DNA of 64,000 nucleotides from a virus (lineage: Duplodnaviria > Heunggongvirae > Uroviricota > Caudoviricetes), in the IMG/VR virus record IMGVR_UViG_3300042901_002340; one strand, given 5' to 3'. Positions 6,088-61,384 of the stretch are shown here, one piece after another (position 1 is the first letter of the stretch; the number at the start of each line of letters is the position of its first letter). Under the pieces are notes generated by a model. The model searched no databases. It saw only the letters and a program-made list of their open reading frames with translations, and was not told the DNA's origin. A program made the position numbers and the translations under genes.

Positions 6088-6302
6088 TAATAAATTATTA
6101 TTTCGGTTAGCTGATATTCTTCAGTTGAAAAATTACCTTCAAATATTTCAGTGGCTCTATCAAACATGTCCTGTTCCGTAAATCCCTCCTCAAAAGGAAC
6201 GCACCCAAGTCTGAGCATTTGAACCCCATCCTCATCAAATTCCAAATCAAAATGTGATAAAGGCAAAGCGTTGTATCTTCTGTTTAAATATATTGCTATC
6301 AT
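6087..6302 (-). CDS. Hypothetical small acidic protein (possible fibre assembly factor)
   Basis: 71-aa ORF that overlaps its fibre-gene neighbours by 1 and 4 nt. Confidence 0.4.
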
Positions 6303-9300: not shown

Positions 9301-9775
9301 CAGTTGCTCCTGTGCTTCCTGTAGATCCAGTAGGGCCAGTTGCTCCTGTGCTTCCTGTAGCACCAGTTGACCCGGCCGGTCCAGGAACTGTTGAATCCGC
9401 ACCTGTTGCTCCAGTGGAACCGGTTGGTCCTGTAGCTCCGGTGGAACCAGTTGCCCCAGCTGGTCCAGGAACTGATGAATCTGCTCCAGTTGCTCCAGTT
9501 GTTCCAGTTGCTCCAGTAGATCCGGTAGGTCCAATTGAACCTTGTGGTCCAATTGAACCTTGTGGTCCAGTTGGACCTGTGGGTCCAACTGGACCACCCG
9601 AAGGACCTGTGGGTCCAGTTGGACCCACAGGTCCAGTAGCACCGTCACCAGTTCCTCCCGTGCCTATATTTGCTAATAGCCACTGATAGCCACTCCAGAT
9701 CCATAATTTTTGAGATCCTTCGTCGGATGATAAAAATGCTTGACCTATTCTAGGTGATTGTGGAAATTGAGCCAA
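6299..9775 (-). CDS. Collagen-like repeat-containing tail fibre protein
   Basis: 1158 aa with several long (G-x-T/S)n and GPxGPxG collagen-like tracts separated by globular Thr/Ser-rich segments. Confidence 0.7.
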
Positions 9776-9877: not shown

Positions 9878-11326
9878 TTATAAACCTATTATAGCGGGAT
9901 CCAATATTCCAAATGGTGTTTGGATAAATGTGGCATCACCTAAAATTGATAGGGAGGATCCTGACGAGTTATACAAAGTATTAGAATTTCCAATTGAGGT
10001 TCCTACAATTTCAAGTATATTATTTCCATTAGAACCATCATCATACCAAATATTTAATGTATCTGTATTATTAGAATAAAATTTGCAATTGCTTAGAGTT
10101 ACATACATGCATGTTTCAGAGAATCCTGCTCTAGAAAGTATATGAGCTTTTTCTGGTGGTGCTTGCTTATTAGAGTAGTTTACGAATCTTACGTTTTCAA
10201 AATTCCAAATTCCATTGTAGTAATCCTCGCTTTCAGTACCAACATTTTCAAGTAAATTTATATTTGCATATTGCTGAGCTTTAGTATCACCAGTTATAAA
10301 AATACTATTTGTTACTGCTACACAGTCCCTTCTGGAGTTCGATAATTTAATATTATTTGTCAAAGAATATAAATAAGTATTCACTATGTGCAATCTTGTG
10401 CCATCTGCATTACTCATAAGAAAGCCATAGGCGCAATCGTTGGCAAGCATGGAAACATTGGAAATTCTACATTTTAAACCGGTACCGCTTAAAAGAAATA
10501 GACATTGAGGTTCAAATAAATCATTTTGACTTAATATAACAGCATTAGGAGATTCTTCTAGATTATTACTACGATCGTCACCAACTATTGAAAAATTCCT
10601 AGTAATATCTATTAAACGGTCGGCAGAATCCAAGAGATTGAAAACTACCTTTACTCCTCCATTTAGCTTGATTGTTAAATTTACCGCGGGAGCCCATGTT
10701 CTAGTTTCCGTGTAATTCCCAGGAAATACCCAAATAGTATGATCGTCTAATTCTAAGGCATTACAATAGACAATTGCACCGCGAATGGTCTGAAAAGGAA
10801 GATCCAGTCTACCCACTACACCAGTAGAATTATTACCATTAGGATCTACAAAAAGGGTTTTAGCATAAGTAAAGGATGATCCGCTACCGGTGGGACCCTG
10901 TGGACCAGTTACCCCTATCCCAGTAGCACCTTGTGGACCTGTTGGTCCAGTAGCACCAGTTCTACCAGTAGCACCAGTTACTCCAAAAATACCAGTAGCA
11001 CCTTGTGGACCTGTTGGTCCAGTAGCACCAGTTCTACCAGTAGCACCAGTTACTCCCACTCCAACAATACCAGTAGCACCCTGTGGACCTGTTGGTCCAG
11101 TAGCACCCTGTGTTCCTTGTGGACCTGTTACTCCCGAAATACCAGTAGCACCTTGGGCTCCTTGAGGACCAGTAGGACCTTGAGGACCAGTTACCCCCTC
11201 GCCTGTCCCGCCTATAGTATAAATATAATTACCCTCACCATCGTAGACATCATTACCTTGTATCTGTAATAATCTACCATAGGTGTCGGCTATAAATTCG
11301 CCGGTAAGATTTAATGGATTTGACAC
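9878..11326 (-). CDS. Collagen-like repeat plus beta-helix domain fibre protein
   Basis: 482 aa. N-terminal GxTGxQGxTG collagen tracts, then a C-terminal beta-helix-like Asn/Ser-rich domain. Confidence 0.65.
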
Positions 11327-17943: not shown

Positions 17944-18047
17944 TGGTCTGGACAGGATTTGAACCTGTATGAAGTTTACACCATTAAGGGACTTACACCC
18001 ACCTATTAAGGCTTTCTTTAAGCGTCTACCAATTCCGCCACCTGACC
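17944..18047 (-). tRNA. tRNA-like element T3 (104 nt) with a type-II (Leu/Ser/Tyr-like) D-arm
   Basis: 5' end GGTCAGG-TG-GCGGAATTGGTAGACGC is essentially the E. coli tRNA-Leu D-arm. 3' end ACAGG-TTCAAAT-CCTGT-CCAGACC-A. About 53 nt lie between the D-arm and T-arm, too many for a canonical anticodon arm plus variable arm. Confidence 0.45.
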
Positions 18048-29007: not shown

Positions 29008-29461
29008 TGGGTTTCAATTGGCAATCCTCAACAGCTACAGCTTTCTTGTTTTTATAGTAAACTCTATGAACATCTGCAAGAAAAGAAACCTCATCCGGAC
29101 CTAGAAATTCCATCATGAGTCTTAGAACTGATGGGAGAACTTCCGATTCATGGAAGATCATTCGGATCTCCTTATAACCATTTCTCTTTCCCTCCTCCCA
29201 ATCCTCCGGATCCTTGATGTTGCTTTCATTGGTGTGTGTCTTGTGTTCATAGATCTGTCCATCGTAGTAACTGAACTCGCTAGTTTCCCCAACTATGCCG
29301 TCCAATTCCTTGACGTCATTAAAGAATTGATCGGTTCCCTTTTCCTCTATATACTTTTTGAATTCTGCAAATATCTCCGGAAATTCTTTCTCGTGTATTT
29401 TGAATTCTTTGTGATCGTGACCCATCTTATCCCAAAGGATCGAAGAATATAAACTCACCAT
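28997..29461 (-). CDS. Hypothetical protein
   Basis: 154-aa ORF. Confidence 0.45.
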   Translation of the reverse strand: MVSLYSSILWDKMGHDHKEFKIHEKEFPEIFAEFKKYIEEKGTDQFFNDVKELDGIVGETSEFSYYDGQIYEHKTHTNESNIKDPEDWEEGKRNGYKEIRMIFHESEVLPSVLRLMMEFLGPDEVSFLADVHRVYYKNKKAVAVEDCQLKPNDE

Positions 29462-30366
29462 TATTTTTTCTTTTTAAAGTACTTATCCATAATATGTGTG
29501 ATGATATTATGTTTTTTATCGGTACAAGTTATTGTTATATAATTTTTTGATGCGTTTTGTGTGTGAACTAGACCATATCTTTTCATCAATGTAATATCAA
29601 CCTCAGGTGTAAGAGAAGCTGAGTTTACTCTCTCACTTTTATTGAAAACCTCACCCTCTGAATGCTCAACCAGAAATATTCCTTCGTTCATCGGTCCGTT
29701 ATTTCTGCCTATAACCACTCTTTTATCCTTCCAGCTAAGATTTGGATTTACTAGGATTTCAATTTTTCCCCTGTATACCCCACATTTATAGATTAATCCT
29801 GATAGTCCTCTCTGTCCCATTGATGAATCATGTTCAATTGGACTGAATCCTTCGCTGTCGGAAAAATGTGGTAATAATCCGGGCCCTATTATAACAAAGT
29901 TTGCTGGTCCGATTCTTGAAGCAGCCGCTATTCGGTTGGATAAAAGTAGTACCTTTCTTGGCAATTCCCCATCCTTTGATAGGTCAAGCATTGGAATATA
30001 TCCCGTCCATTTATTGGCAAGGTTCTGGATTTTTGTCCATAGCTTTCTGTTTGATTCGTAACCAAGCAATTTCATTTTTTTATAAATCTGCTTTTCCTGA
30101 CCTGTACTGGATTCTCCTATAAGAGTGGATTCAATCATTGTCATAGCATCAATACCATAAGCATCAAGATCTTTTATCTGTTCGCCGTTGATTGTCGATT
30201 TAACCCGGTATGTCTCTAGTTCAACAAGTTTTGTTTTTGTTGTTACCCCGATTTCTGGAAATCCGTCTTCGCTAGGTGTATCTTTTAATTCTGTGGTCAG
30301 GTAAGTTAATATCCCATGTCCACTGTCTACCTGTGATACAGATATATGTTTTTTAATCTCACTCAT
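29461..30366 (-). CDS. Hypothetical protein
   Basis: 301-aa ORF with no recognised motif. Confidence 0.5.
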   Translation of the reverse strand: MSEIKKHISVSQVDSGHGILTYLTTELKDTPSEDGFPEIGVTTKTKLVELETYRVKSTINGEQIKDLDAYGIDAMTMIESTLIGESSTGQEKQIYKKMKLLGYESNRKLWTKIQNLANKWTGYIPMLDLSKDGELPRKVLLLSNRIAAASRIGPANFVIIGPGLLPHFSDSEGFSPIEHDSSMGQRGLSGLIYKCGVYRGKIEILVNPNLSWKDKRVVIGRNNGPMNEGIFLVEHSEGEVFNKSERVNSASLTPEVDITLMKRYGLVHTQNASKNYITITCTDKKHNIITHIMDKYFKKKK

Positions 30367-33196: not shown

Positions 33197-33943
33197 TTAA
33201 GTGATTATTTTTGCGGCTATATTCTCAACGAATGCCTTCATATCTGCAGGTGATATCTTATCTACAGAGTCTTCCATGCTATGACATAGAAATAGAACTT
33301 CAAAATCTAAGCATCTCCCATCGGAACAAACAACTGGTGTTTTCTTATCTGTTGGAGGCAATGGATTGATAACAACAGAATCTATACCATTCCTTCTGAA
33401 AATAACAGAATCGTTGAAAGGTGTTCTAACTATTGGACAATCAAAGATGGATTGGATGTGATCTGTTAGTGGCCCTGGGTAGTCTCCAATAAAGAAATCT
33501 TCACCCCCTCTGCCGGTTAACTCGAAATTAAGTACCCATTTGATATCACCAAAATCTCCAGCATTAATTCTTTCGCTCAGATGTTTGGATCCAAATCCTC
33601 CATACTCTTCACCGTCCAATATCGATACGTTTATTGAAGGTACCAATTTCTTAAGTGCAATCGCATTAATAACTGAACAGCTATTATCATTTGCATTGTC
33701 TGATTTTGGATTAACTATATCGTGATGAGCAACAACAAACTGGTTTGAATTACCTAACAGATTGATATTGAACCCGTCAGTTTTCTCATCGACAGGGAAA
33801 CGATCAATCTCGTATTCTATCCCCTCTTTTTTAAGAAGAGACACTATAAACTCCAGCCTGGGGGTAAGTTCCTTCCCATTGGTGAAGATAGGACCTACAT
33901 TTTTTGCGGCACAGAGCCCATAAATTTCATTGTATATACTCAT
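33197..33943 (-). CDS. Zn-dependent peptidase-like protein (M28/M20-like motifs)
   Basis: VVAHHDIV (H.D), ANDNSCSV (GA.DD.SG-like) and ...NDSVIFRRNGIDSV (SDH..F...GIP-like). Confidence 0.4.
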   Translation of the reverse strand: MSIYNEIYGLCAAKNVGPIFTNGKELTPRLEFIVSLLKKEGIEYEIDRFPVDEKTDGFNINLLGNSNQFVVAHHDIVNPKSDNANDNSCSVINAIALKKLVPSINVSILDGEEYGGFGSKHLSERINAGDFGDIKWVLNFELTGRGGEDFFIGDYPGPLTDHIQSIFDCPIVRTPFNDSVIFRRNGIDSVVINPLPPTDKKTPVVCSDGRCLDFEVLFLCHSMEDSVDKISPADMKAFVENIAAKIIT

Positions 33944-35421: not shown

Positions 35422-37083
35422 TTATTTTAATCTCTCTCTAATTTCTGTTAGCGTGACCTGATTGTGGAATTTACCATCCTCATAGATGGTAAATAATAAA
35501 CCACTGTCTTCCTGCTCCTTAGTGCATTCGGTATTTACCTCCAACTGATCCTTACCATCGTACTTGATCTCGTAAGGTAAGGCATCTGGCCTGTTATTGA
35601 ATACCTGACAGAAACCCTTTAATGATTTTTTAGTACCATTATCTGTTATTGGGTCTTTGTAGATATTATATTCGGTCGTGATGTAATCAGTTTGACCGTC
35701 AGGATCAACACCATTAAATTCCTTAGTAGAGAACCAAGCTCCTTTAGCTGCATATCCAGCAGAGTCTCTTGTTAGCATGACATATGTGTAAGAACCAACC
35801 CCTACAACGACGTTAGTAGATGCAAATCCTTTGGCTTCTGACCTTGTGTAGATAGCAATTTGTCTTTCCAAGTTGATTGAATCACCGTAGATGGCTCCAA
35901 TGTGTGGGTCCAATCTTTTATATCCTTGTTCATTGATAGTTCCACCAAAGATATCCCAAAGTAATTCAATAACACCTTTACCTTCTGGAGTTCCAGTGTG
36001 TAATGTTGATTCGCTACCGCAAATAATATCGACTGGGTCTCCAGAATCAGGACGAATTACAAGTTTACCATCTCTTGCAAGGATTTCCTTTTTAAGTCTT
36101 GGTAGAATGTGCGTAATAACTTTCCATAAATCCATTGTATCAGAAACTGCAGAAAGAATGCCTTTAGGGAATTTTTTCAACCAATCTCGAAGATTAAGGT
36201 ATTCTGCAATTGCTAGGTAGTCCGGAGCATCAACCGATCCCTCGCAAGGGGAATCGAAAGAATAGTAGTTTAGAATCTCATGGTTTAATTTTCCAGATTT
36301 TAATTTTTTCTCGTAGAAGAAAATACCTGTACAAGTCACGCTGTGCTCTGAAGCATTAACGCTATAAACAGGAACCTCATTCTCATCAAAATCGTAGTAG
36401 TATCTTGATGCCGGGATAACATTTAATGTGTCGCTACCAGAATTACTCATGGCGTGTCCTAAACCGATTGCGATTGAGGTGAAAGGATTACCACCTCTAC
36501 TATGAAAATCGTGACACATGAAATCAGCTAACCAAAGATTCTCCGGATCTGTTTTGGTAACCCATTCCACAGCATTCTTTTTGAATCTGTGTGCAATGGT
36601 AGCAGCAGTAGGTAATTGCCAAGCCAATTTAGAAACCAATGTCTCTAAGTAAAGTCCAAGCCATGCATAACCATCAACAGTATTAATACCCGTCATGTGA
36701 GGGATATTTGGTTTGGTGAAGGTTCCTTCTGGGATAGCTTTGATTTTAACTGGAAGGTATCCAAGTTTATGAAGCTCTGTGAAATGCCCAGCATCATAGT
36801 CCATCATAAGATACTTAGCCATATCTCTTCCAAATTTCTCTGCCACCTCCACATGTTTATTGAAGAAAAGCTCCTGAAAGTTACTATGAATGTATCTCCA
36901 AACTAATTGTTGACCTGCTGACATGATGCCGTCTATCGATGGATGCATGTACTTGATGCTTCTTGGAATCCATGTCCAATATTCGGTTGCTGTGTTTTCA
37001 GCTAACATTGCCTTGTGCCCAACTTTATACCCGTCGGATTCGTAAAGGGGGTTGATTTTAAACGTTTCGTTTAGTTTTTCCAT
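35422..37083 (-). CDS. nadV: Nicotinamide phosphoribosyltransferase (NAMPT / NadV-like; could be a Namat-type enzyme)
   Basis: Recalled NAMPT blocks aligned by eye: DGYKVGHKAM (cf. DSYKVTHYKQ), KIKAIPEGT, CHDFHSRGG (cf. LHDFGYRG), LVIRPDSGDPVDII (cf. LIIRPDSGNPLDTV), GAIYGDSIN. Confidence 0.8.
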   Translation of the reverse strand: MEKLNETFKINPLYESDGYKVGHKAMLAENTATEYWTWIPRSIKYMHPSIDGIMSAGQQLVWRYIHSNFQELFFNKHVEVAEKFGRDMAKYLMMDYDAGHFTELHKLGYLPVKIKAIPEGTFTKPNIPHMTGINTVDGYAWLGLYLETLVSKLAWQLPTAATIAHRFKKNAVEWVTKTDPENLWLADFMCHDFHSRGGNPFTSIAIGLGHAMSNSGSDTLNVIPASRYYYDFDENEVPVYSVNASEHSVTCTGIFFYEKKLKSGKLNHEILNYYSFDSPCEGSVDAPDYLAIAEYLNLRDWLKKFPKGILSAVSDTMDLWKVITHILPRLKKEILARDGKLVIRPDSGDPVDIICGSESTLHTGTPEGKGVIELLWDIFGGTINEQGYKRLDPHIGAIYGDSINLERQIAIYTRSEAKGFASTNVVVGVGSYTYVMLTRDSAGYAAKGAWFSTKEFNGVDPDGQTDYITTEYNIYKDPITDNGTKKSLKGFCQVFNNRPDALPYEIKYDGKDQLEVNTECTKEQEDSGLLFTIYEDGKFHNQVTLTEIRERLK

Positions 37084-37959: not shown

Positions 37960-38451
37960 TTATTGGGTTTTATAGATTAATTCGTCTTTTTTGATGTATG
38001 GAATATGTATGTACTCATCCACTAAAGCTTTCTGTTTTTCTAAACATGATTCTAACATTTTAGATTTCTCTATTATAGCGGATTCTGGAACTTTTCTTTC
38101 TCTATTTTTATTTCTTTCCAAGCAAACTTTTAAAGGTGCTTCAACATAAACTAGTGTTATGTGATAACCTTTGTCCTTAAGCATTCCAATAATTCTCAAA
38201 GAGTAAGAGTTATTAACTCCACCAGAGTCCATGCACATAGAAATTCCTTTATCCGATAGTTCACACATTTGTCTTTCCGCTTCTTTAACACTCCATTGGT
38301 GAAGGGGTTCTGGATCCTTTGGGTCATAATCCTTATGTGATTGTTTGATAAGGTCAGCAGAAACTATAGAATAGTCTCCGGCATAGTCTCTATTGACTAT
38401 GGATGTTTTTCCTGATCCAGGTAAGCCGATAAAAAGTATTGCTTTTTTCAT
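37960..38451 (-). CDS. P-loop kinase (AAA_33 / polynucleotide-kinase or zeta-toxin-like fold)
   Basis: Walker A LFIGLPGSGKTSIV at the N-terminus. Size fits a small nucleotide or nucleoside kinase. Confidence 0.5.
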   Translation of the reverse strand: MKKAILFIGLPGSGKTSIVNRDYAGDYSIVSADLIKQSHKDYDPKDPEPLHQWSVKEAERQMCELSDKGISMCMDSGGVNNSYSLRIIGMLKDKGYHITLVYVEAPLKVCLERNKNRERKVPESAIIEKSKMLESCLEKQKALVDEYIHIPYIKKDELIYKTQ

Positions 38452-42141: not shown

Positions 42142-42471
42142 CTATTCTTTATCTATGTTATTAATTATATCACTAATTCCGTCACTCTCTGACATGCCTT
42201 CTAATTTCTTGGCTAATTCTACGAATGCTGTATATCCAATATCCTGCATCTCCATGATGAGATCAACAACTCTAACGTCGACGTTTAATTCCTCTGCACA
42301 TTTTATTGCAGTTTTCTCCTCGAGTTTAACCCCAGATTCAACAAGATCCATTGCCATGTCGAATCCCTTTTCTGTTATGAGTGTTCCTCCTTCCAGAAAA
42401 CCACCCTCTCTTAGTTTGTTACACCAGTAAACAAACAGGAGTGCCTGTTCTTTAAGCTCCTCGAAGTTCAT
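42142..42471 (-). CDS. Hypothetical small acidic protein
   Basis: 109-aa ORF. Confidence 0.45.
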   Translation of the reverse strand: MNFEELKEQALLFVYWCNKLREGGFLEGGTLITEKGFDMAMDLVESGVKLEEKTAIKCAEELNVDVRVVDLIMEMQDIGYTAFVELAKKLEGMSESDGISDIINNIDKE

Positions 42472-42931
42472 TTTTCACAAGTGTTAATGCTTGACCTAAT
42501 AAATTAAGACCTAACCAATATGACGGATCCTCAACTCCTTGTGCATCCTCGTCCATACCAATTCCCCACACATTATCAAGAGGTGAAGCTTCAACAAAAA
42601 ATGCATTCCCTGTTGATAGCATTTCTTCCTTTAAGCCTGGATTCTGTGAAAATTTGGCTAGATTTCCTTCATATACAATAGCTAAGCAATTCCTTTCCCA
42701 AATTGATTTGTCAAAGTTCTTAACCATCCTTCCGAATTTCTTTTGTTCCCTTGGATTTTTTTCCTGCATGATTAATTCTGCAGTTTCTTCATCGCCAAAT
42801 AACAATGCCTTCTGGTGCATCATGTATTGCTCGCATGAATTATATTCTATTTTACCAATGGTCATATTTGCTTTATGCCATTGCGAGTAAATTCCATTCC
42901 AGAAAAACACGTATTTATTTGTTGTTTTCAT
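42452..42931 (-). CDS. NADAR domain protein (YbiA-like, DUF1768; ADP-ribose / NAD-associated N-glycosidase family)
   Basis: FFW....S.W, EQ.MM..KA, KFSQNP.L...LL.TG...VEAS..D..WGIG and LG..L..VR match the NADAR family pattern as I recall it. Confidence 0.65.
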   Translation of the reverse strand: MKTTNKYVFFWNGIYSQWHKANMTIGKIEYNSCEQYMMHQKALLFGDEETAELIMQEKNPREQKKFGRMVKNFDKSIWERNCLAIVYEGNLAKFSQNPGLKEEMLSTGNAFFVEASPLDNVWGIGMDEDAQGVEDPSYWLGLNLLGQALTLVKNELRGA

Positions 42932-44042: not shown

Positions 44043-45116
44043 TTATACGTATTTATGTGTTTGGTCGTTAATCATAGCAATTGTGCCGGTGGTCAATTGC
44101 TTCAACGTCTCTTTAAAAACTTGTATTGCAGCCGCTACGTCATCTTTATGCACCATCTCTACTGTAGTATGCATATACTTCAACGGACTAGCTACGATCA
44201 CTGTAGGGACGTTTTCAAGGAAGAATGAAACTGTGTCATTTCCATAAGATCCAACAGATAGTTGCAACGGAATTTCTTTTTTCTTAGCAACATCTCTAAC
44301 GATATTGATTAGATCCTTGTGGTTTTGAGACGAGTACTCGATAACCGGACCTGCACCTCCTTTAACATCACCAGATTTGGCTTTGTTCATCTTAGGAGAG
44401 TTTGTGTTATGGGTAACGTCGTGAACCAATGCGATGTCTGGTTTAATTGTTTGAGCAATCAATCTTGCTCCAAATAACCCAACTTCCTCCTGGACAGCAT
44501 TAACTATGTAAAGATCGAATGGTAACACTGTTCCTTCCTCTTTAAGTTCTCTTGCAACTTCAGCAATGATGTAACCACCGATCTTATTGTCTAGTGATCT
44601 ACCCACGTAATATTTGCCCATCTCGAAGAATGGCTGGTCAAACGTGATACAATTTCCAACCTCGACCCCAAGTTTTGCAACCTTCTTTGCTGTGTCAACT
44701 CCAAGATCAACCCAAAGTTCATGAACTTCCGGTCCCATCTCAACTCTTTTTTCTCTAACGTGAATAGCAGGCCATCCAAAAACTCCAGGTACTTTTTTAC
44801 CGTCATGTGTGTGAACAAAAACAGTCATTGATGGAGCAATCATATTGTCTGATCCACCGTTTGTTTTCACTCTAATCATTCCGTTTTCCTCTATCTGCGA
44901 AATTACAAATGCTATCTCGTCGCAGTGGGCTTCCAAAATTACTTTCTTGGTTCCTGTCCCTTTGATTAAACCATATGCTGTTCCGTATGCATCAACTTTC
45001 ATTTCACTAACGAATGGTTTAACATAATCGATCCATATTTTCTGTCCTTCAAATTCTCTTCCAACCGGTGAGAAAGCGTCTAAATACCCTTTTAAAAACT
45101 TTTTATTATCGCTCAT
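44043..45116 (-). CDS. M42 family metallo-aminopeptidase (FrvX / glutamyl aminopeptidase-like)
   Basis: ILEAHCDEIAFVIS matches the M42 AHmDEiG motif. Overall length and layout fit the M42/M20 clan. Confidence 0.65.
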   Translation of the reverse strand: MSDNKKFLKGYLDAFSPVGREFEGQKIWIDYVKPFVSEMKVDAYGTAYGLIKGTGTKKVILEAHCDEIAFVISQIEENGMIRVKTNGGSDNMIAPSMTVFVHTHDGKKVPGVFGWPAIHVREKRVEMGPEVHELWVDLGVDTAKKVAKLGVEVGNCITFDQPFFEMGKYYVGRSLDNKIGGYIIAEVARELKEEGTVLPFDLYIVNAVQEEVGLFGARLIAQTIKPDIALVHDVTHNTNSPKMNKAKSGDVKGGAGPVIEYSSQNHKDLINIVRDVAKKKEIPLQLSVGSYGNDTVSFFLENVPTVIVASPLKYMHTTVEMVHKDDVAAAIQVFKETLKQLTTGTIAMINDQTHKYV

Positions 45117-46122: not shown

Positions 46123-46704
46123 TTATTTTTTTAGATGTACTATTGTTACCTTACAATCTTTTAGCTCCTCCTTTATTAGGGATTTAACCGTTTTCTCATC
46201 ACCTCCGGCCAATCCACACCCGATAAGGGGGAGTCCGACGTGTCTACCTTTGAATTGGTGGTTTATTTTTCTCATACAGAGTCTAAGTGCATCATAATCA
46301 AGGGGCCTAGCAGTTCCGCCCTCATGATTTAATCCAAACCCATATTGGGTGTAGCTATTAACAACTGCAAGATCAAATTTGCCATTTTCTCCGGTGTATG
46401 TATTAACCTTCCAATCTATCTGACCAAGCTTGTTATAGTCACCCCTATGCTGTTGACCTTCCATTGGAAATTTGTCACACCCAAATGCCCCAGCCATTTG
46501 TGGTGCTATTCCAGCTCCCATGGTACAGAAACAGTTACATCCATGGGTGATCACTTGGAATTTTCCCTGTTGTGCCATGGTTATTAGATTGCCAACTACC
46601 TCCCGATATGCTGGGTGGATTGGCTGACTAATAAGGGATTCTGGCAAACATGACCTGTCACACTCGCCGTTGCAATACATACAACCTCCTATTAGTGTTC
46701 TCAT
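46123..46704 (-). CDS. Macro domain protein (ADP-ribose binding or hydrolysing) with an N-terminal Cys cluster
   Basis: QVITHGCNCFCTMGAGIAPQ matches the macro VNaaN..l.gGgGva / Macro_2 pattern. LPLIGCGLAGGD is the distal macro motif. N-terminus has CMYCNGECDRSC. Confidence 0.55.
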   Translation of the reverse strand: MRTLIGGCMYCNGECDRSCLPESLISQPIHPAYREVVGNLITMAQQGKFQVITHGCNCFCTMGAGIAPQMAGAFGCDKFPMEGQQHRGDYNKLGQIDWKVNTYTGENGKFDLAVVNSYTQYGFGLNHEGGTARPLDYDALRLCMRKINHQFKGRHVGLPLIGCGLAGGDEKTVKSLIKEELKDCKVTIVHLKK

Positions 46705-47197: not shown

Positions 47198-48103
47198 TTA
47201 GATAACTTTTAATTGTTTAAGTTTGTGCATCTCATTATCGTTTCTTAATGAGAATTCAGGATCGGACATATCAACATAACTGTTGGTTGTGTAGATACCA
47301 TCGAAGTGTTCATTTAGTGGCTTTAAACCAGCTGAAAAGATTCCATGGGTTACAACAAGGAAAATCTTACCTGTTGCATTTTTTTCTCTGAGTGCTTTAG
47401 CAATCTCGATAAATGTGCGTCCTCCGTCGCAAATATCATCTAAGATAAAGAAGTCTTTATCTAGATCCTCAGGTTTTAAAGGAACATCAGTGTGTGTAAT
47501 CTTGCCAGTCCCAATGTCTCTGTGTTTTGAAGCTATAACTATGTCCTGCTTATATCCAATGGACTCGGCAACATCGTAAACTTTCTTAAGAGCTCCAGCA
47601 TCCGGAGATATTAATCTCATTTTGGAATAATCAGTGCTTCCAGAATTGAAATAGTCACGCAATACAAATGTTAGTAAACCCTGACCATATTGAGTTACCT
47701 TTTTGAATTTTTTGATACATGCCTCAGTCACATCCGAATGCGGGTCAAGTATTGTTACTCTTTTGAATTTCTGTGCATTGATAATAGGAGCAAGAACCTC
47801 TTTGATGTAATTAACACTTCCTTCCTCGAATTTTCTGTCCGATCTCGCACCTAATAGGTATGATATCTCAAGTGAAGTTGCTTTAACTCCAAGCTCTTTA
47901 AGAGCTTTATTTGCACAAATAACCAATTCAAGATCCAAGAATGAAGTTATTCTGGATTTTATTAAAACTGGTTCCATTTTCTCAAACATATCATGTTTGA
48001 GAACTTCACCCTCCAATATGGTGATGGCTTGCTGGCCATCCGGAAATTTGGAGACCTTGAATTTGATACCGTAGCTTAACGGTTCGGAAAGATTTATTAC
48101 CAT
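47198..48103 (-). CDS. Ribose-phosphate pyrophosphokinase (PRPP synthetase)-like protein; could be an ADPR-pyrophosphate synthetase (Adps) type
   Basis: RVTILDPHSDVTEAC matches the PRPP-synthetase DLHA..IQGFF region. FFILDDICDGGRTF matches the PRPP-binding loop VDDMIDTGGT. 301 aa. Confidence 0.65.
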   Translation of the reverse strand: MVINLSEPLSYGIKFKVSKFPDGQQAITILEGEVLKHDMFEKMEPVLIKSRITSFLDLELVICANKALKELGVKATSLEISYLLGARSDRKFEEGSVNYIKEVLAPIINAQKFKRVTILDPHSDVTEACIKKFKKVTQYGQGLLTFVLRDYFNSGSTDYSKMRLISPDAGALKKVYDVAESIGYKQDIVIASKHRDIGTGKITHTDVPLKPEDLDKDFFILDDICDGGRTFIEIAKALREKNATGKIFLVVTHGIFSAGLKPLNEHFDGIYTTNSYVDMSDPEFSLRNDNEMHKLKQLKVI

Positions 48104-50209: not shown

Positions 50210-50471
50210 CTTTTTGGTATTTATCTAAAAATTTTTGTATTATCGAAGATCCGCTCGATGACTTTCCAACAATCATGTTTAGCTCACCATCCTGTGGGCC
50301 AACCATATTATTCAAAGCCTCTGCCATTCTTTCCTTGAGTGACATGTTAGCTAATCTCTCCTCAGCTGCTTTATTTTCAAGATCAATGAACTCCTTCCAC
50401 TCCGGAGAGGACACGATTTCATTTATGCTATTGTACTTCAACTTCTTCAGATTTAGGTGATTTAATTTCAA
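50202..50471 (-). CDS. Hypothetical small protein
   Basis: 89-aa ORF. Confidence 0.4.
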   Translation of the reverse strand: MKLNHLNLKKLKYNSINEIVSSPEWKEFIDLENKAAEERLANMSLKERMAEALNNMVGPQDGELNMIVGKSSSGSSIIQKFLDKYQKDV

Positions 50472-51282
50472 ACTCCGGAATCATGACATCCATAAATTCT
50501 CTCTCCTGTGTGAATATAGGTGTCGGAATCATTTGCCATTTCAGTCTTTCAACCTGGCCATCTCTACCTTCAATCATTGTTGGTACCTTAGCAATAATGC
50601 CACCTCTTTTTTCTCTGAAGTGATAGTCATTCCAGTTGATTCCTTTCTGAAAAATCATCTCTTGCATGTCCTTCTCCTTCTTGCCATTTAATTCACTTTG
50701 TGAATATAGGCTTTGCGCAACGGATTGGATTGAGTTTCTAGTTCCATCTTGCTGTCTGAAGATGAAATAGTTCTCAACCTCACTTTTTTGTGGAATCTGA
50801 AACACCCTAGCATCGAACTCTGCTAGTTTAAATTTTTCGATCTCTGCTTGACTCATTGTTTGATCCAATATCGAAGATGCTAAACTTGCCATTGGATCAA
50901 CATTGTTCTTAGCATATCTGATCATTCTCAGCTGGTTGAACTTTGCAGTTGCCATAGAAGCTGCAACCGATGCCATTTTTTGTAGATTCCCATCGAACCA
51001 CATTTGAGTGTCTCTCTCTTCGAAATCAGTAATAAGTATACTGATCTCATCTGATTGAACATAGCCAAATTTTGCTCCCTGTATATTCTTACAAAGGTAG
51101 GCGGTGGTCTCGTTCATGTCTGCAATTAAACCTGCATCAAATGGAGATACCAAACCTTTTGTGTAGGTGTGGAAAGCTTTCCCGTCGATTCTGATTATTG
51201 TGTACGTTCTCCGTGGAACATAGTATCTAAAACGGTCTTCGTAGAATTCTTTCATACGATCGCCAAGGCTAAAGATTTTCAT
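50428..51282 (-). CDS. Thg1-like protein (tRNA-His guanylyltransferase family 3'-5' nucleotidyltransferase)
   Basis: TIIRIDGKAFHTYTKG...FGYVQSDEISILI and ..KMASVAASMATAKF match the Thg1/TLP catalytic core (cf. VVVRLDGRNFHRF...AYGQSDEYSFVF, ..KFMTHVASQFASSY, as recalled). Confidence 0.75.
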   Translation of the reverse strand: MKIFSLGDRMKEFYEDRFRYYVPRRTYTIIRIDGKAFHTYTKGLVSPFDAGLIADMNETTAYLCKNIQGAKFGYVQSDEISILITDFEERDTQMWFDGNLQKMASVAASMATAKFNQLRMIRYAKNNVDPMASLASSILDQTMSQAEIEKFKLAEFDARVFQIPQKSEVENYFIFRQQDGTRNSIQSVAQSLYSQSELNGKKEKDMQEMIFQKGINWNDYHFREKRGGIIAKVPTMIEGRDGQVERLKWQMIPTPIFTQEREFMDVMIPEFEIKSPKSEEVEVQ

Positions 51283-51284
51283 AG

Positions 51285-52169
51285 TTAATTTTTTAATTCG
51301 TATAATCCCTCCCTAACTAGAACGCTGTGCAGATCTCTAATTCTAAAGTAGTAACATGCATTTTTTGTTGATCCTCCATAGTAATCATGATCGTAAGATT
51401 CATCAACATCAACACACTCAGCCCATATTTTTTTGTATAGCATGAATGATATATGTGGACAAACCTCGTTGATTATATCGTCGAAGGCACTAAAGTTGGA
51501 TACTGGTGCTTCCCCAGAAACCGTTCCTCCGCCTCCCCAGCAATCTTTCCAATCTCCACCTAGACACCAGGATTGTGAGGTAACTTTTCCATCCCGATCT
51601 GGGCAAGAATGCTTGGATGCAATCTCATCCCTAAAAACCTCCCATGCTAATTTCATTACAGTTTTATGTGTTTGTATCGAAACTTTGACATCCTTCATTT
51701 CTGATAGACTTTCTGATATTTTAGCAAGATCTGGTGTTTCTATTGTTGAATTTGCGATTGATATCGATGAGTTCTTATCCCTTCTTCCTCTATCGTTGTG
51801 CATGCACGCATCAATATCGGGTGTCCAGTAATTGATTACAACCTCAGTATTCTTTCTGATTTGTAACTTATTCAAAAGATCTATAATACCGCCATTCGTT
51901 GAAACGAAAAGATCCAATATAACCTCATCATAATGCGTGGAGCTATTTTGATATTCTCTGATCATCTCAACATCAGGTTTGGTCAGTGAAGCGGATGGAT
52001 ACCTTCTTCTGATCTCGTATCTCTCCCTCAACTTATCAAATTCTATATGAAGAACCCCACCTTTGCTCCTCATGCTTCCTGCTGGCCCCTGTTTATCTTT
52101 AGCCCATGTGGTCTTTCCTGATCCCGGTAAACCAACTGTTATATGTAATTTTTGATTATTCATTCTCAC
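51285..52169 (-). CDS. P-loop kinase (polynucleotide-kinase-like) next to the Thg1-like gene
   Basis: Walker A ITVGLPGSGKTTWAKD at the N-terminus. The downstream region has no clear HAD phosphatase motif. Confidence 0.45.
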   Translation of the reverse strand: MRMNNQKLHITVGLPGSGKTTWAKDKQGPAGSMRSKGGVLHIEFDKLRERYEIRRRYPSASLTKPDVEMIREYQNSSTHYDEVILDLFVSTNGGIIDLLNKLQIRKNTEVVINYWTPDIDACMHNDRGRRDKNSSISIANSTIETPDLAKISESLSEMKDVKVSIQTHKTVMKLAWEVFRDEIASKHSCPDRDGKVTSQSWCLGGDWKDCWGGGGTVSGEAPVSNFSAFDDIINEVCPHISFMLYKKIWAECVDVDESYDHDYYGGSTKNACYYFRIRDLHSVLVREGLYELKN

Positions 52170-52392
52170 TTATAAATATAAATGGGTATTTTTCCTTCAT
52201 CTTTTCAGAATCCTCCGTTGCTTTATCCAGATGTTCTTTGTGGTATTTTTTAGAGTCTAATTTTCTTGAATAAATTATTCTTAATAGATCTTTTATTATC
52301 TCTTCCTGTGATTCGAAGTTATAATTAGCAAGCATCGGATAGATTCTATCTGCTGCTTCGTGAATTTCTAGGTTCTGAGATGAATCTTCCAT
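52156..52392 (-). CDS. Hypothetical small acidic protein
   Basis: 78-aa ORF. Confidence 0.4.
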   Translation of the reverse strand: MEDSSQNLEIHEAADRIYPMLANYNFESQEEIIKDLLRIIYSRKLDSKKYHKEHLDKATEDSEKMKEKYPFIFISENE

Positions 52393-52394
52393 TA

Positions 52395-52595
52395 CTATAA
52401 AGTTTCGTCTGGAAAGAATTTTTCAAATAGAATACCAAATCCTCCATGTTCTGTTACAGCAACCTTTCCTGTTGATACTTCTCTTGCTGTTACTGAGATG
52501 ATTCTCCACCCGTCGTTTAACACAGCATCAACTTCTTCCTGTGCATTAATTTTACCGCTTGAGGTAATTAAAAATTTTTGTCTAGTTACTGCCAT
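52395..52595 (-). CDS. Hypothetical small protein
   Basis: 66-aa ORF. Confidence 0.35.
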   Translation of the reverse strand: MAVTRQKFLITSSGKINAQEEVDAVLNDGWRIISVTAREVSTGKVAVTEHGGFGILFEKFFPDETL

Positions 52596-52607
52596 TTTAT
52601 TTGGTTT

Positions 52608-53040
52608 TTATAATGAAAAAATACATTCTTTTTTTGGATTGAATATTCTTAGAACAGTCCCCTGTCCAAATACCCAATTGAAGTAATGACCTCGATATTT
52701 AATAGTACCTCCACCAAAACTTGCATCAAAGCTATCAAGTTGTTTGTTATAAGGTCTCCCACCTATCTCGGCAGCATCGAATACAAAGTACATCAGATTT
52801 CTAGGATGTGGCATGTGACCTTTAGCGTAACATCTTCCCTCATATGCATCATCATGTCTAGCAATCTCCTTAGCTAATTTGAATTCAAATTCCGCTCTGG
52901 ATAGGCTCTCGATATACTTGAAGGCTCTTTGTTTTCTGTCAGCCTCCCTTTTCATCTTAGCCCCAATTCTTTCCATTGAAGCCTTTCCCTCTGGGGTCTC
53001 CATGAAAGCCTCTAATTTCTCCAACATATCCGATGCCATG
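52608..53040 (-). CDS. Hypothetical protein (start moved to the ATG for MASDMLEKL)
   Basis: The ORF-track start at 53066 is TTG and lies inside the conserved promoter motif. The ATG at 53040 sits about 25 nt downstream of the motif, as at other genes. Confidence 0.5.
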
Positions 53041-53062
53041 ATTCCTTTTATTAAATTATATT

Positions 53063-53096
53063 GCAAATATATGGATTTAATTCGAGATATAAAAAT
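53063..53096 (-). promoter_or_regulatory. Conserved promoter element (gcaaatatatg ... ttcgagatataaaaat)
   Basis: Lies upstream of 52608..53040. Confidence 0.5.
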
Positions 53097-53106
53097 TTAT
53101 TTCAAA

Positions 53107-53403
53107 TTATTTTTTAAGATTTGGAAACTCAAGAAACTCAGAATCCAATATTTCTTTTATCATTTTCAGTTTAATACCTGATGGATCTGTTATATGGAGA
53201 TGTCTTATGCTGGATGTTATTGATTTTATATCGTACGTAAGTCCCCATCCGGAAGCACAGGTATCTGCATCTCTACCAAACATAGCTTCAAAAGTATCCT
53301 TAACCCTTTGTCTCAATGGGAAATCCGCACCAAATTCCATCTCGCTTCTTTTAACTGGACCGATCTCGCAGTACCAATACTCGTCTTTTTCTTCTTTATT
53401 CAT
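53107..53403 (-). CDS. Hypothetical protein
   Basis: 98-aa ORF. Confidence 0.45.
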   Translation of the reverse strand: MNKEEKDEYWYCEIGPVKRSEMEFGADFPLRQRVKDTFEAMFGRDADTCASGWGLTYDIKSITSSIRHLHITDPSGIKLKMIKEILDSEFLEFPNLKK

Positions 53404-58069: not shown

Positions 58070-58271
58070 AACAATAACAATTATTTTAAATTGTTTCTTT
58101 GGTATTTTATGGGATGGCTTAGTTCTTTCTATCTAAATTGGCAGTTTTATCTTGCGATTTTTCTTGAGGTGTAGTGCAGCAGCCCACTGCAGTTCTCTCC
58201 TTACCCAACTATTACCAATGCGTCCATCCTATAAAATACCGTTCATTCACCACGAAGAACATTTTATTTTT

Positions 58272-58340
58272 GTGGAGAGAGAAGGATTCGAACCTCCAAT
58301 CTTATTGCTTTACCTACACGTGACTTTAAGCATATCTCCC
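58272..58340 (-). tRNA. tRNA-like element T5 (69 nt)
   Basis: 5' end GGGGAGA pairs 7 of 7 (one G-U) with 3' TCTCTCC-A. T-arm GGAGG-TTCGAAT-CCTTC. The interior GCTT-AAAGTCACGTGTAGGTA-AAGC does not give a canonical D-arm or anticodon arm. Confidence 0.4.
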
Positions 58341-58351
58341 CATTTATATTT

Positions 58352-58458
58352 GTGGCCAGTGCAGGAATCGAACCTGCTGTTAATGCCAAAGCTCCACGAC
58401 ATCAACCATTGCTTTATAGGAACTTTCTAATGTGCAGGTTCCATCCCTGCATTCTGGC
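58352..58458 (-). tRNA. tRNA-like element T6 (107 nt)
   Basis: 5' end GGCCAGA; 3' end GCAGG-TTCGATT-CCTGC-ACTGGCC-A. The D-arm-like hairpin is GCAGGGATGGAACCTGC. Confidence 0.4.
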
Positions 58459-58543
58459 CGTTAAAAACAGAGGTCATCCAGTATACGGGGTGCGCCTCAC
58501 CTTATGCATCTAGGGCCCGTGCGTTTGTGTTTTACTTGTTTTG

Positions 58544-58620
58544 TGATTGGAACAGGATTCGAACCCATTTTTACCAGTACTCTCAATAGGCGTCGCGCCA
58601 CAATCAAGCTATTTCCAATC
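58544..58620 (-). tRNA. tRNA-like element T7 (77 nt)
   Basis: Perfect 7-bp terminal stem GATTGGA/TCCAATC, discriminator A, T-arm ATGGG-TTCGAAT-CCTGT. The interior has a GGCG-CGA-CGCC hairpin and no obvious anticodon stem. Confidence 0.45.
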
Positions 58621-58806
58621 GTTTAAAGAGCCTAGCCTGACCTGCCAGACAGTACATGTCGAGATTAATTTGGCGCCTCGTTATGTAGTAGACCCTTATG
58701 TTTTAACCCTGGACTTGGACTCTGCCTCGAACGATTTTATTAGTGATCCGCGGAACCACCTTATTTCGTGTCCAGTTATCACTGCAGCTTACAGTGACGT
58801 GGCTAG

Positions 58807-58933
58807 TGGGGGAAACAGGAATCGAACCTGTGACACTTTGAATCAGCTAAACCTCGCCTTTGTGTGAAGACGTCATAGATGCTATCTATGATGTAAGTTA
58901 GAGATGGATACCATACCGTTGGTCTATTCCCCC
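58807..58933 (-). tRNA. tRNA-like element T8 (127 nt)
   Basis: Perfect 7-bp terminal stem GGGGGAA/TTCCCCC-A, T-arm ACAGG-TTCGATT-CCTGT. The interior has a perfect 8-bp hairpin TCATAGAT-AGC-ATCTATGA. Confidence 0.4.
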
Positions 58934-59172
58934 TGTTGGAAACCAGTTAAAGCCGACCGATTTCCCTGTTATACCGACTTTTCCACTAGGTTAGGAAACT
59001 GTCTTCTGCAAAACCACCCTTACTTTTCCTTAAGGCTAGGAAAACTTTTAAACTACCCGGTCCTATTAACCTTGTTTTTAAATCTAAAACAATGTTCTCG
59101 TCCGATGGAGATGCACAATAAAAACTGCTTTATCTTCGTATTCTTTATCTTATTTCCCTTATTAATTACATT

Positions 59173-59221: not shown

Positions 59222-60124
59222 TTACATATTTAATCCTTCCTTCATTGATTCCTCCGAAAGCTTTCTAGCTTCCTCCATCTCTAAAGTGGATAAGAATTTA
59301 TCCAGTGTCAGATCACAATATTCATCTATCCAGTCGCCTATAAAGTACAATTTTCTAGTACCTTTAAGCACACCAAATAGAATTGGATCCTTGGCCTTTT
59401 CAACCTCGGCTTTTGTCATCTTTGTGGAATTGTCATACTTATCAAAATGCATAACCGCATAATTATCAAATAGCTCCGAAACGTCATATTTTTTCTTTTC
59501 CTCTATAACATCTTCCGGAATCATTCTGGCGTAGTTTTTTATCCACGTCAGTTTCAGCATTTTATCTTTTAGGTTTGCTTTTTTATAGAACTTAACTACA
59601 TCCTCCTCGGTAACGTATTTCATCTCACCAACCTCCAATAGTTTAGCTTCCGCAAGAACCCCATCCTTCTTATCTCTAAGTATTTCCAAGAAAGCTATCT
59701 GTCCATTATTCTTTGCAGTTTCTATTGCATTTGTATAGAATTCGACCGAGCCTGGATTTACCTCCAGAGTTTTTATTGAATCCTTAACATCATTAAAGAA
59801 TTCATCCACTGATTGATATCGGATTTTTGTTATCTTCTTGTTTGGAAATAGCATCTCCGCAGCTTTCAATTTAATCCAACTTTTAAACGTGTGCTCATGC
59901 ATGTGCCTATAGTGAAAATAATCAACCGCACGTACTTCTATTGAATCGGTGAGTGAATTTGCAGAATTTGAATCCCTTGTCATGGCATCCGAGAATGAAC
60001 TCATTCCACCAACCACGAAAGATCCGTTTGCTACTGATATGCTATTATTTTCCACCTTCTTGATGGCCTTGGGCATAGAGATGAAATTTTCAAATATCTC
60101 TAACTTGTTGGAATTTGTTATCAT
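59222..60124 (-). CDS. Hypothetical protein
   Basis: 300-aa ORF. Confidence 0.5.
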   Translation of the reverse strand: MITNSNKLEIFENFISMPKAIKKVENNSISVANGSFVVGGMSSFSDAMTRDSNSANSLTDSIEVRAVDYFHYRHMHEHTFKSWIKLKAAEMLFPNKKITKIRYQSVDEFFNDVKDSIKTLEVNPGSVEFYTNAIETAKNNGQIAFLEILRDKKDGVLAEAKLLEVGEMKYVTEEDVVKFYKKANLKDKMLKLTWIKNYARMIPEDVIEEKKKYDVSELFDNYAVMHFDKYDNSTKMTKAEVEKAKDPILFGVLKGTRKLYFIGDWIDEYCDLTLDKFLSTLEMEEARKLSEESMKEGLNM

Positions 60125-60811: not shown

Positions 60812-61384
60812 TTAGAAATACCTTTCCTCAAATACGAGGAGATCTAATTTGTTATTTACGTTGATTAATTGAAGTGCATTCAGAAGATCTGAGTATTCAC
60901 CAACAGAATCATTTTGTATATCAACATACTTCTGGATGAAATTAAATGTTGGTGGATGTGCATCGCAAAGTGCATGCTGCATTGATGAGTAATTCATCAA
61001 TAGCTTATATTCTATGTCGTATCCCTCGTCGATAATACTAACTAATGAATCAAACTCATTTGGTACATTTACTGCAGGTATCTGTGGAAGTATATTCCAC
61101 TGGATTAAATAATCCTGTAAGCCTTTTGCGTGATCGAGTTCGGATGCTGCCTCAGCTTCAAAGAAAGCTGTTGCTTTTTTATAGTTTGCGTTTTTGCACC
61201 AATTGGCTGCATTTCTATATGTATAGTGTGCAGTGTATTCATCAGCTATTCTTTTCTCGAATGCAGCAACTATATCAGCTGATAAAACTTTTGGATTTGT
61301 AATTCCGTTTGATACTCCAATCTCTATGGCTTCAATCTCCACATTCTCGTTGGTTTTATCTTTGAAGTGTTTAAATGTTCTCAT
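60812..61384 (-). CDS. Ferritin-like protein
   Basis: AHYTYRNAANW...ATAFFEAEAASELDHAKGLQDYL matches the ferritin helix A/B pattern (Y.Y......F..FF...S.EE..HA.KL..Y). Confidence 0.6.
   Translation of the reverse strand: MRTFKHFKDKTNENVEIEAIEIGVSNGITNPKVLSADIVAAFEKRIADEYTAHYTYRNAANWCKNANYKKATAFFEAEAASELDHAKGLQDYLIQWNILPQIPAVNVPNEFDSLVSIIDEGYDIEYKLLMNYSSMQHALCDAHPPTFNFIQKYVDIQNDSVGEYSDLLNALQLINVNNKLDLLVFEERYF

Follow-up and report, generated by a model that had tools for sequence, protein, structure and literature searches.

A candidate tRNA 5'-end healing gene pair in a tailed phage: a bacterial-type Thg1-like protein encoded beside a two-domain polynucleotide kinase-like partner

Analysis of a 64-kb stretch of DNA from the tailed-phage record IMGVR_UViG_3300042901_002340 (64,000 nucleotides, referred to below as the window) identified two adjacent genes that encode a Thg1-like protein (TLP) and a two-domain P-loop protein. 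On balance, comparison with characterized relatives leads us to lean towards a reading in which the pair forms a two-gene RNA-end healing unit, with the kinase feeding the TLP so that tRNA 5' ends are restored. The genes and domains concerned are the following:

50428..51282, minus strand: gene for the TLP, bacterial type, 284 aa, ATG start
51285..52169, minus strand: P-loop partner open reading frame (ORF), 294 aa, directly upstream of the TLP gene
51699..52169, minus strand: N-terminal P-loop kinase domain of the partner (residues 1-157), which its profile and predicted fold place in the polynucleotide/RNA 5'-kinase clade
51285..51698, minus strand: acidic C-terminal domain of the partner (residues 158-294 and stop codon), with the motifs WCLGG, FxxFDxLL, CPxIxFLQYKK and DYYGG
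52156..52392, minus strand: 78-aa gene upstream of the kinase gene, function not assigned; its stop overlaps the kinase start

The initial annotation had described two ORFs separated by 2 nt, and this arrangement was confirmed. Both genes lie on the minus strand, and the junction reads ...AAT TAA CT ATG..., with the kinase stop TAA at 51285-51287, the TLP ATG at 51282 and a gap of CT between them. The kinase ORF is listed from a GTG at 52169; the ATG at 52163 (MNNQKLH...) matches the N-termini of homologs better (MSNQKLN in homolog P0002) and, from this comparison, is more probably the start. With this ATG, the kinase start overlaps the stop codon of the 78-aa gene that precedes it (ATGAATAA). 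The two genes sit within a long series of close-packed minus-strand genes, and the first strong terminator-like hairpin 3' of this gene block was located at 48928-48888 (minus strand). Apart from this hairpin, scans for promoters and terminators gave nothing above background. With promoter-like matches at background, it is gene packing alone that suggests an operon, and the kinase and the TLP are probably translationally coupled.

The TLP was assigned to the Thg1 family by several independent matches, as the initial annotation had proposed. It matched Pfam Thg1 (PF04446) with 90.1 bits (cut-off 29.2, E = 1.4e-25) and PHROG 4717, 'tRNA-His guanylyltransferase', with E = 1.5e-83. The top PDB match by phmmer was the Bacillus thuringiensis enzyme BtTLP (4kgk, E = 2.2e-57; Hyde et al. 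2013, PLoS One, PMC3701042). Other PDB matches were far weaker, at 1.6e-10 for an archaeal TLP and 9e-9 to 7e-4 for eukaryotic Thg1 proteins (Candida 9e-9, human 6e-4). Functional residues of BtTLP (PMC3701042) were transferred to the window TLP via the phmmer alignment, and conservation was read from 20 phage TLPs. The two-metal carboxylates D33, D78 and E79 (D30, D75 and E76 in BtTLP; D29, D76 and E77 in hTHG1) were present in all 20 phage proteins. Residues R31, R159, E15, R176 and S77 of the window TLP align with R28, R131, E12, R147 and S74 of BtTLP. The nucleotidyl-transfer residues R31, K102, R159, E15 and R176 were kept (ScThg1 counterparts R27, K96 and R133), as was the activation-step serine S77 (S75/S76 in ScThg1), and E15, R31, D33, S77, D78, E79, K102, R159, R176 and N183 were invariant across the phage set. 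The third activation-step position is Ser187 in the window TLP, Met (M158) in BtTLP and N161 in ScThg1. The eukaryotic HINNLYN motif is replaced by TRNSIQS in the window TLP and by SKNSISM in BtTLP. Relative to BtTLP, residues 124-151 of the window TLP form a 28-aa insertion that is common to a large metagenomic phage clade and missing in the TLPs of Bacillus and Stenotrophomonas phages. No useful match was obtained with PADLOC or NCBIfam for either the TLP or the kinase protein. Taken together, these data place the window TLP in the bacterial-type repair subtype with an intact polymerase site, from which 3'-5' addition activity is predicted.

The 294-aa partner contains the Walker A motif GLPGSGKT. 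Direct matches were weak, as with phrog_505 'polynucleotide kinase' (E = 7e-6, residues 6-130), and the earlier description of a polynucleotide-kinase-like P-loop gene was borne out by profile and fold comparisons that went beyond them. The kinase family comprised 62 clusters of 231-320 aa, most with >90% coverage, from metagenomic contigs of up to 652 kb; several members are recorded with PF13671. In the family alignment the Walker A motif GLPGSGKT, D86 and the motif C-x-x-N-D-x-x-R-R were invariant. D45, kept in 90% or more of the family, was aligned to T4 D35 by the family profile. The best PDB matches of this profile were T4 polynucleotide kinase (E = 1.6e-5) and Pnkp1 (1.2e-4), and the PDB matches spanned only ~140-150 residues, corresponding to the N-terminal half. 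R129 and R130 were invariant within C-x-x-N-D-R-G-R-R, a motif that hhalign paired with the lid-like 'CLERNKNRERK' of a bona fide AAA_33 kinase and that is a candidate counterpart of the RxxxR lid (R122/R126 in T4 Pnk). The predicted fold of the kinase half was closest to RNA/polynucleotide kinases. By profile and predicted fold, the N-terminal half is thus placed in the polynucleotide/RNA 5'-kinase clade (T4 Pnk, CthPnkp, Trl1 kinase), and it would be expected to phosphorylate 5'-OH ends. No 3'-phosphatase domain of the HAD or metallophosphoesterase type was found in the partner protein by Pfam, PDB or fold matching. Elsewhere the window encodes another P-loop kinase, a stand-alone protein of 162 aa (37963-38451, minus strand), which matched Pfam AAA_33 with 52.9 bits and Zeta_toxin and KTI12 more weakly; it is a homolog of the partner's kinase half (hhalign probability 97%).

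The C-terminal half of the partner (~135 aa, residues ~158-294), in which the motifs listed above are conserved, had escaped remark in the initial annotation. It matched nothing in Pfam, NCBIfam or PHROG; a profile built from it hit no PDB sequence, and no fold match was convincing. A possible relative, the PDB entry 9vyg 'Adaptor protein' (E = 0.17), was gone when the domain profile was used and was taken as a chance match. Among viral models the sole match was Gp242 of Bacillus phage G, which belongs to the same family (Foldseek E = 7.5e-9). When the domain profile was searched against 1.84 billion representatives, 1,823 clusters were obtained, 1,110 of them at E <= 1e-10. Nearly all are proteins of 260-300 aa in which the domain follows a kinase of ~150 aa, and a few are stand-alone. 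At loci L015 and L016 the domain is a gene of its own immediately upstream of a separate P-loop gene, with the order of the two swapped, and the profile pattern at L014 is like this split form. Because the two parts are also found as split, order-swapped adjacent genes, we regard the kinase half and the C-terminal domain as one functional unit. The core of the domain, with a median pI of 4.3 and a net charge of -10 over 105 aa, is strongly acidic; this charge argues against direct or simple RNA binding, and the domain is taken to be a docking or regulatory module. Kinase-family loci were located with a hand-made WCLGG...DYY DNA pattern; a generic GLPGSGKT pattern was swamped by unrelated matches. 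Judged from the contigs recovered, the family appears confined to phage-like contigs. As far as our analysis shows, the C-terminal domain and the phage-specific family defined by it are the undescribed part of the finding.

In the pathway we propose, the Pnk-type P-loop domain would first phosphorylate a 5'-OH RNA end, most likely that of a tRNA cut or trimmed at its 5' end. By close homology with BtTLP, whose biochemistry has been characterized, the TLP would then activate the 5'-monophosphate with ATP or GTP and extend the end in the 3'-5' direction, copying the 3' strand of the acceptor stem until the lost nucleotides are replaced and the tRNA is full-length. BtTLP performs template-dependent repair of 5'-truncated tRNA and needs a 5'-monophosphate together with ATP/GTP, or a 5'-triphosphate (PMC3061083, PMC3701042). 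Because a 5'-OH end cannot be activated by the TLP, a Pnk-type kinase is the logical supplier of the 5'-phosphate. The most plausible use would be to keep tRNAs usable in infection, either against host RNA-targeting defenses or as general tRNA quality control.

The initial annotation implied that this idea was original, which did not hold. Anantharaman, Iyer and Aravind (2010, Biol Direct 5:43, PMC2904730) reported the operon link between Thg1 and polynucleotide kinase, in predicted bacterial operons with or without MACRO and RNA ligase genes, and suggested that the 5'-phosphate substrate is generated by the kinase. In Iyer et al. (2021, Viruses 13:63, PMC7824862), Thg1 is listed among the RNA repair enzymes of jumbo phages, as one of sporadic occurrence that restores 5' ends. 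Repair by Thg1 and polynucleotide kinase, with a role in phage counter-defense, was thus published in 2010 and again in 2021 (PMC2904730, PMC7824862), and a Thg1-like gene has been mentioned in phage genome papers since 2013. The tightly packed pair in the window would offer a simple in vitro system for the 2010 prediction that polynucleotide kinase feeds Thg1-type enzymes.

Examination of other loci revealed that the kinase family recurs near TLP, tRNA and RNA-repair genes. At L005 (85% identity), the kinase and TLP genes are adjacent with a 2-nt gap as in the window, and a HAD_SAK_2 'RNA repair' phosphatase gene lies 4 kb upstream. At L002/L003 (45% identity, 328-kb contig), the TLP gene is 1.5 kb downstream of the kinase and is followed by a gene for a Pol-beta-type nucleotidyltransferase, with RtcB and RNA ligase genes 3-6 kb upstream of the kinase. 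A tRNA array ends ~0.65 kb upstream of the kinase at L004 and L025, where the TLP gene is found 4.2 kb and 1.9 kb downstream, respectively. Genes for tRNA lie within 2 kb of the kinase at L022, L027 and L006, and they enclose or immediately adjoin the split forms at L014 and L015. At L020 an RNA ligase gene is found 3.7 kb from the kinase, and L011 has a HAD_SAK_2 gene. Bacillus phage G is the only cultured phage with the kinase family; its gp242 lies two genes away from gp240, which is annotated as 'RNA ligase', and the phage also encodes a TLP (gp378) ~120 kb from gp242. TLPs were identified in 161-164 of 50,697 phage records (~0.3%). Judged by this rate, the kinase-TLP co-occurrences are probably far above chance. 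The features that define a Thg1-polynucleotide kinase operon, namely adjacent same-strand genes and a link in several lineages, were thus both found, and the link is facultative.

We also examined the neighborhoods of TLP genes in general. TLPs form >8,000 protein clusters at E <= 1e-10 across all sources and occur at no fewer than 578 IMG/VR loci; those in phage records are mostly annotated and have a PHROG of their own, contrary to the suggestion in the initial annotation that they are absent from phage reference genomes. Neighbors were counted as genes within 6 kb at 88 loci. Recurrent neighbors were NAMPT (17 loci), ATP-dependent DNA ligase (17), PRPP synthetase (16), macro-like proteins (16), HAD_SAK_2 (16), YqeY (15) and NADAR (10). 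Two kinds of PF09414 RNA ligase were present at 10 and 8 loci, at a median distance of <1 kb. TLP genes were located inside tRNA arrays at L074, L081 and L108, and 2.7-5.2 kb from arrays at L102 and L103. Other small P-loop kinases adjoin the TLP in a few loci (L104, L133, L143/144). The window pair itself sits in an accessory island with NAD-salvage and ADP-ribose-processing genes, of which the following were identified:

35422-37083, minus strand: NAMPT (phrog_448, E = 3e-136)
42461-42931, minus strand: NADAR homolog, 78% identical to a PF08719 protein
46129-46608, minus strand: macro-like protein, 4 kb from the gene pair
47198-48103, minus strand: ribose-phosphate pyrophosphokinase (phrog_619, E = 6e-63)

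These families rank among the commonest TLP neighbors elsewhere, at 17 (NAMPT), 10 (NADAR), 16 (macro-like) and 16 (ribose-phosphate pyrophosphokinase) of the 88 loci.

Several findings weigh against the healing unit. In the TLP, the activation-step lysine (K43 in BtTLP, K44 in ScThg1) is replaced by Ser46. In BtTLP, K43 positions ATP in 5'-activation, and the K43A mutation lowered adenylylation ~10-fold and left guanylylation unchanged (PMC3701042); phage relatives mostly carry Arg at this position, and Lys, Leu or Val also occur. With Ser46, the window TLP would be expected to favor GTP for activation. In the partner, the match to Pfam AAA_33 (PF13671) reached 23.2 bits, under the cut-off of 27; the arginine equivalent to R38 of T4 Pnk is R48 in the window protein and is not conserved across the family; and the acidic C-terminal domain has no assignable activity. 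The two-domain kinase was found in none of the best 80 IMG/VR TLP loci and in none of 80 cellular TLP loci. The 64-kb window gave no ligase or 3'-phosphatase. Searches of the open-access literature identified no experimental work on any phage TLP or on this kinase family, and no host or defense nuclease that trims tRNA 5' ends to 5'-OH, so that the damage to be repaired is hypothetical.

The absence of a ligase, which the initial annotation had noted, was supported by two types of search. When the 64-kb window was searched by tblastn (E <= 0.01), no match was obtained to three PF09414 RNA ligases, phage G gp240 or RtcB, nor to two HAD_SAK_2 phosphatases or the Pol-beta nucleotidyltransferase, and Pfam and PHROG scans of the 38 larger ORFs revealed no RNA ligase. 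T4-type repair of anticodon breaks has an RNA ligase as partner, and none was found within the window.

The closest syntenic relative of the window also counts against an obligate pairing. L071, on a 434.5-kb contig, encodes a TLP that is 86% identical and is collinear with the window over ~15 kb. It has no kinase gene, and the 78-aa gene abuts the TLP gene directly, which marks this gene as the edge of the kinase indel. The kinase is thus an accessory gene that close relatives have gained or lost, and it is not required by the TLP. Coupling of kinase and TLP is facultative: most phages have TLPs without this kinase, and the kinase family is also found with RNA ligases. The repair module proposed in the initial annotation therefore stands as a sound hypothesis with recurrent genomic associations, but it had already been published and does not extend to obligate coupling. 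An indel hot spot surrounds the pair, as revealed by comparison of window 52100-53110 with L071 6116-9051 and L005 3261-7056. The HAD_SAK_2 phosphatase gene of L005 has a counterpart in neither the window nor L071. Paralogous genes of ~180-215 aa occur in series in L071 (five ORFs of 152-216 aa) and L005 (four of 180-215 aa) and not in the window.

A different role for the TLP, which we consider rather unlikely, is addition or restoration of G-1 on phage or host tRNA-His, which is what its database name implies, with the kinase either an unrelated neighbor or serving ligases elsewhere in the genome. TLP genes do occur in or near tRNA arrays that contain tRNA-His (L074, L102, L108), and BtTLP is able to add a templated G-1 opposite C73 (Rao et al. 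2011, NAR, PMC3061083). The persistence of the TLP without the kinase in L071 and most phages, and the occurrence of the kinase family beside RNA ligase genes in phage G, L002 and L020, also fit this role. However, the three phage tRNA-His genes that were examined all carry an encoded G at position -1 together with C73, as in bacteria, where G-1 stays on the tRNA after RNase P cleavage. With both nucleotides encoded in phage tRNA-His genes beside TLPs, post-transcriptional addition of G-1 is not required. In addition, no canonical tRNA gene, and hence no tRNA-His, was called in the window, and by type the enzyme goes with the repair enzyme BtTLP, not with the Thg1 of eukaryotes that adds G-1.

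The P-loop protein could also be a tRNA-dependent kinase or ATPase of the PSTK/Kti12 type, with the C-terminal domain recognizing the substrate, that modifies or chaperones tRNA alongside the TLP instead of acting upstream of it. This is improbable on three counts: the best PDB matches of the family profile were T4 Pnk and Pnkp1 and not PSTK; the C-terminal domain has no similarity to any solved structure, the C-terminal domains of PSTK and Kti12 included; and a strongly acidic domain fits tRNA binding poorly. We think it very unlikely that the protein is a small-molecule kinase of the NAD-salvage island (acting on a nucleoside, nucleotide or nicotinamide riboside) whose adjacency to the TLP is a by-product of shared cargo.

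Within the healing unit that we favor, the kinase could have a more specific meaning, which we put forward as a tentative and probably incorrect extension. Kinases with the WCLGG/DYYGG domain might constitute a new phage-specific class of tRNA-end kinases that feed TLPs or RNA ligases and counter a host defense, not described in the literature consulted, that trims tRNA 5' ends, or attacks other RNA ends, and leaves 5'-OH. If this were true, a family of >1,000 clusters, often beside tRNA arrays, would point to a 5'-OH-leaving host defense that is reversed by reverse-direction polymerization. If the pair served only in housekeeping tRNA quality control, the finding would be ordinary. The acidic domain marks a sizeable uncharacterized phage family tied to tRNA and RNA repair genes, and what it recognizes could reveal which RNA ends are damaged in infection and the host systems responsible. 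TLP genes are common in large phages, yet we found no study of 3'-5' RNA polymerization by a phage TLP in the open-access literature.

Comparison with known systems revealed both shared and distinct features. The window TLP is of the same family and subtype as BtTLP, and retains the carboxylate triad, the arginines and lysine of nucleotidyl transfer, S74 and the RQQD..NS motif; it differs in being phage-encoded, in the 28-aa insertion and in Ser46 in place of K43, and its predicted chemistry is template-dependent 3'-5' repair of 5'-truncated tRNA. The gene pairing and repair logic are those of the Thg1-polynucleotide kinase operons described in 2010, and the macro-like gene 4 kb away in the window adds to the likeness. 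In contrast, the window kinase has an extra acidic C-terminal domain that was seen in none of the P-loop genes by TLPs at the 80 cellular loci. The T4 Pnkp/Rnl1, bacterial Pnkp/Hen1 and Pnkp1-Rnl-Hen1 systems share with the pair the kinase fold, Walker A motif, an Asp at the position of T4 D35 and a putative arginine-rich lid, and the pair is placed with them in RNA-end healing in phage-host conflict. Unlike these systems, the pair lacks a 3'-phosphatase domain, whether HAD or metallophosphoesterase, and no ligase was found in the window; its restoring enzyme would be a 3'-5' polymerase that replaces lost 5' nucleotides instead of joining halves. Phage G gp242, which carries no annotation, is a full-length homolog of the two-domain kinase (26.5% identity, 93% coverage) in a genome that also has a TLP, but that TLP is distant and gp242 lies near the gene annotated as an RNA ligase instead.

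Atypical tRNA-like elements had also been noted in the window and tied to the gene pair. Their presence was confirmed: Rfam returned three tRNA matches that narrowly passed the cut-off of 29 bits (30.6-35.1 bits) and that carry large insertions or lack the anticodon arm, and ARAGORN called no tRNA in the window. The elements are:

17944-18047, minus strand: tRNA-Leu-like element, 104 nt (Rfam tRNA)
58807-58933, minus strand: tRNA-like element with a 71-nt insert in place of the anticodon arm (Rfam tRNA)
58273-58341, minus strand: 69-nt tRNA-like element with a single extra hairpin (Rfam tRNA)
58459-58353, minus strand: very stable 107-nt tRNA-like element (surrounding 136 nt, 58345-58480: -52 kcal/mol, z -5.4)

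Besides the three Rfam matches, two elements with an acceptor stem and T-arm were recognized by eye in 58350-58620, one of them sub-threshold against the T-arm part of Rfam tmRNA. The cluster at 58270-58940 and the element at 17944-18047 (all minus strand) have a 7-bp acceptor stem, a canonical GGTTCGAwTCC T-arm and an abnormal middle. Three elements were checked base by base, and acceptor-stem positions 1-3 were paired in each. The proposed tie to the gene pair was not supported. The elements lie 6-7 kb and 32 kb from the pair, no specific tie between them and the TLP-kinase pair was found, and the three that were read showed no sign of being substrates of 5' editing or repair. Mitochondrial-style tRNA 5' editing was considered as a role for the TLP and was likewise unsupported, given the paired acceptor positions. 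The first tRNA-like element is kept in L071 (88% identity), which lacks ~360 nt (window ~58266-58624) that hold the last two tRNA-like elements and part of a third.

Other genes were also noted in the window:

6299-9775, 9878-11326 and 29461-30366, minus strand: collagen-like tail-fiber genes and a Gp23-type major capsid fragment (capsid PF07068, E = 1.3e-11)
59222-60124, minus strand: transposase-like gene directly upstream of the tRNA-like cluster (phrog_10081, E = 2.9e-20)
44043-45116, 33197-33943 and 60812-61384, minus strand: M42/M20-family aminopeptidase, M28 peptidase and ferritin-like genes, unusual phage auxiliary genes

The tail-fiber and capsid genes confirm a tailed-phage origin. 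The 434.5-kb IMG/VR contig of the relative L071 suggests a jumbo phage or megaphage, and the source phage is probably very large, ~430 kb. A final observation concerns the 342-kb viral contig of L015, on which a tRNA with a CUA anticodon (10781-10854) lies 64 nt after the split kinase. This tRNA, an amber suppressor that ARAGORN reported as 'tRNA-Pyl', hints at stop-codon recoding in that phage.

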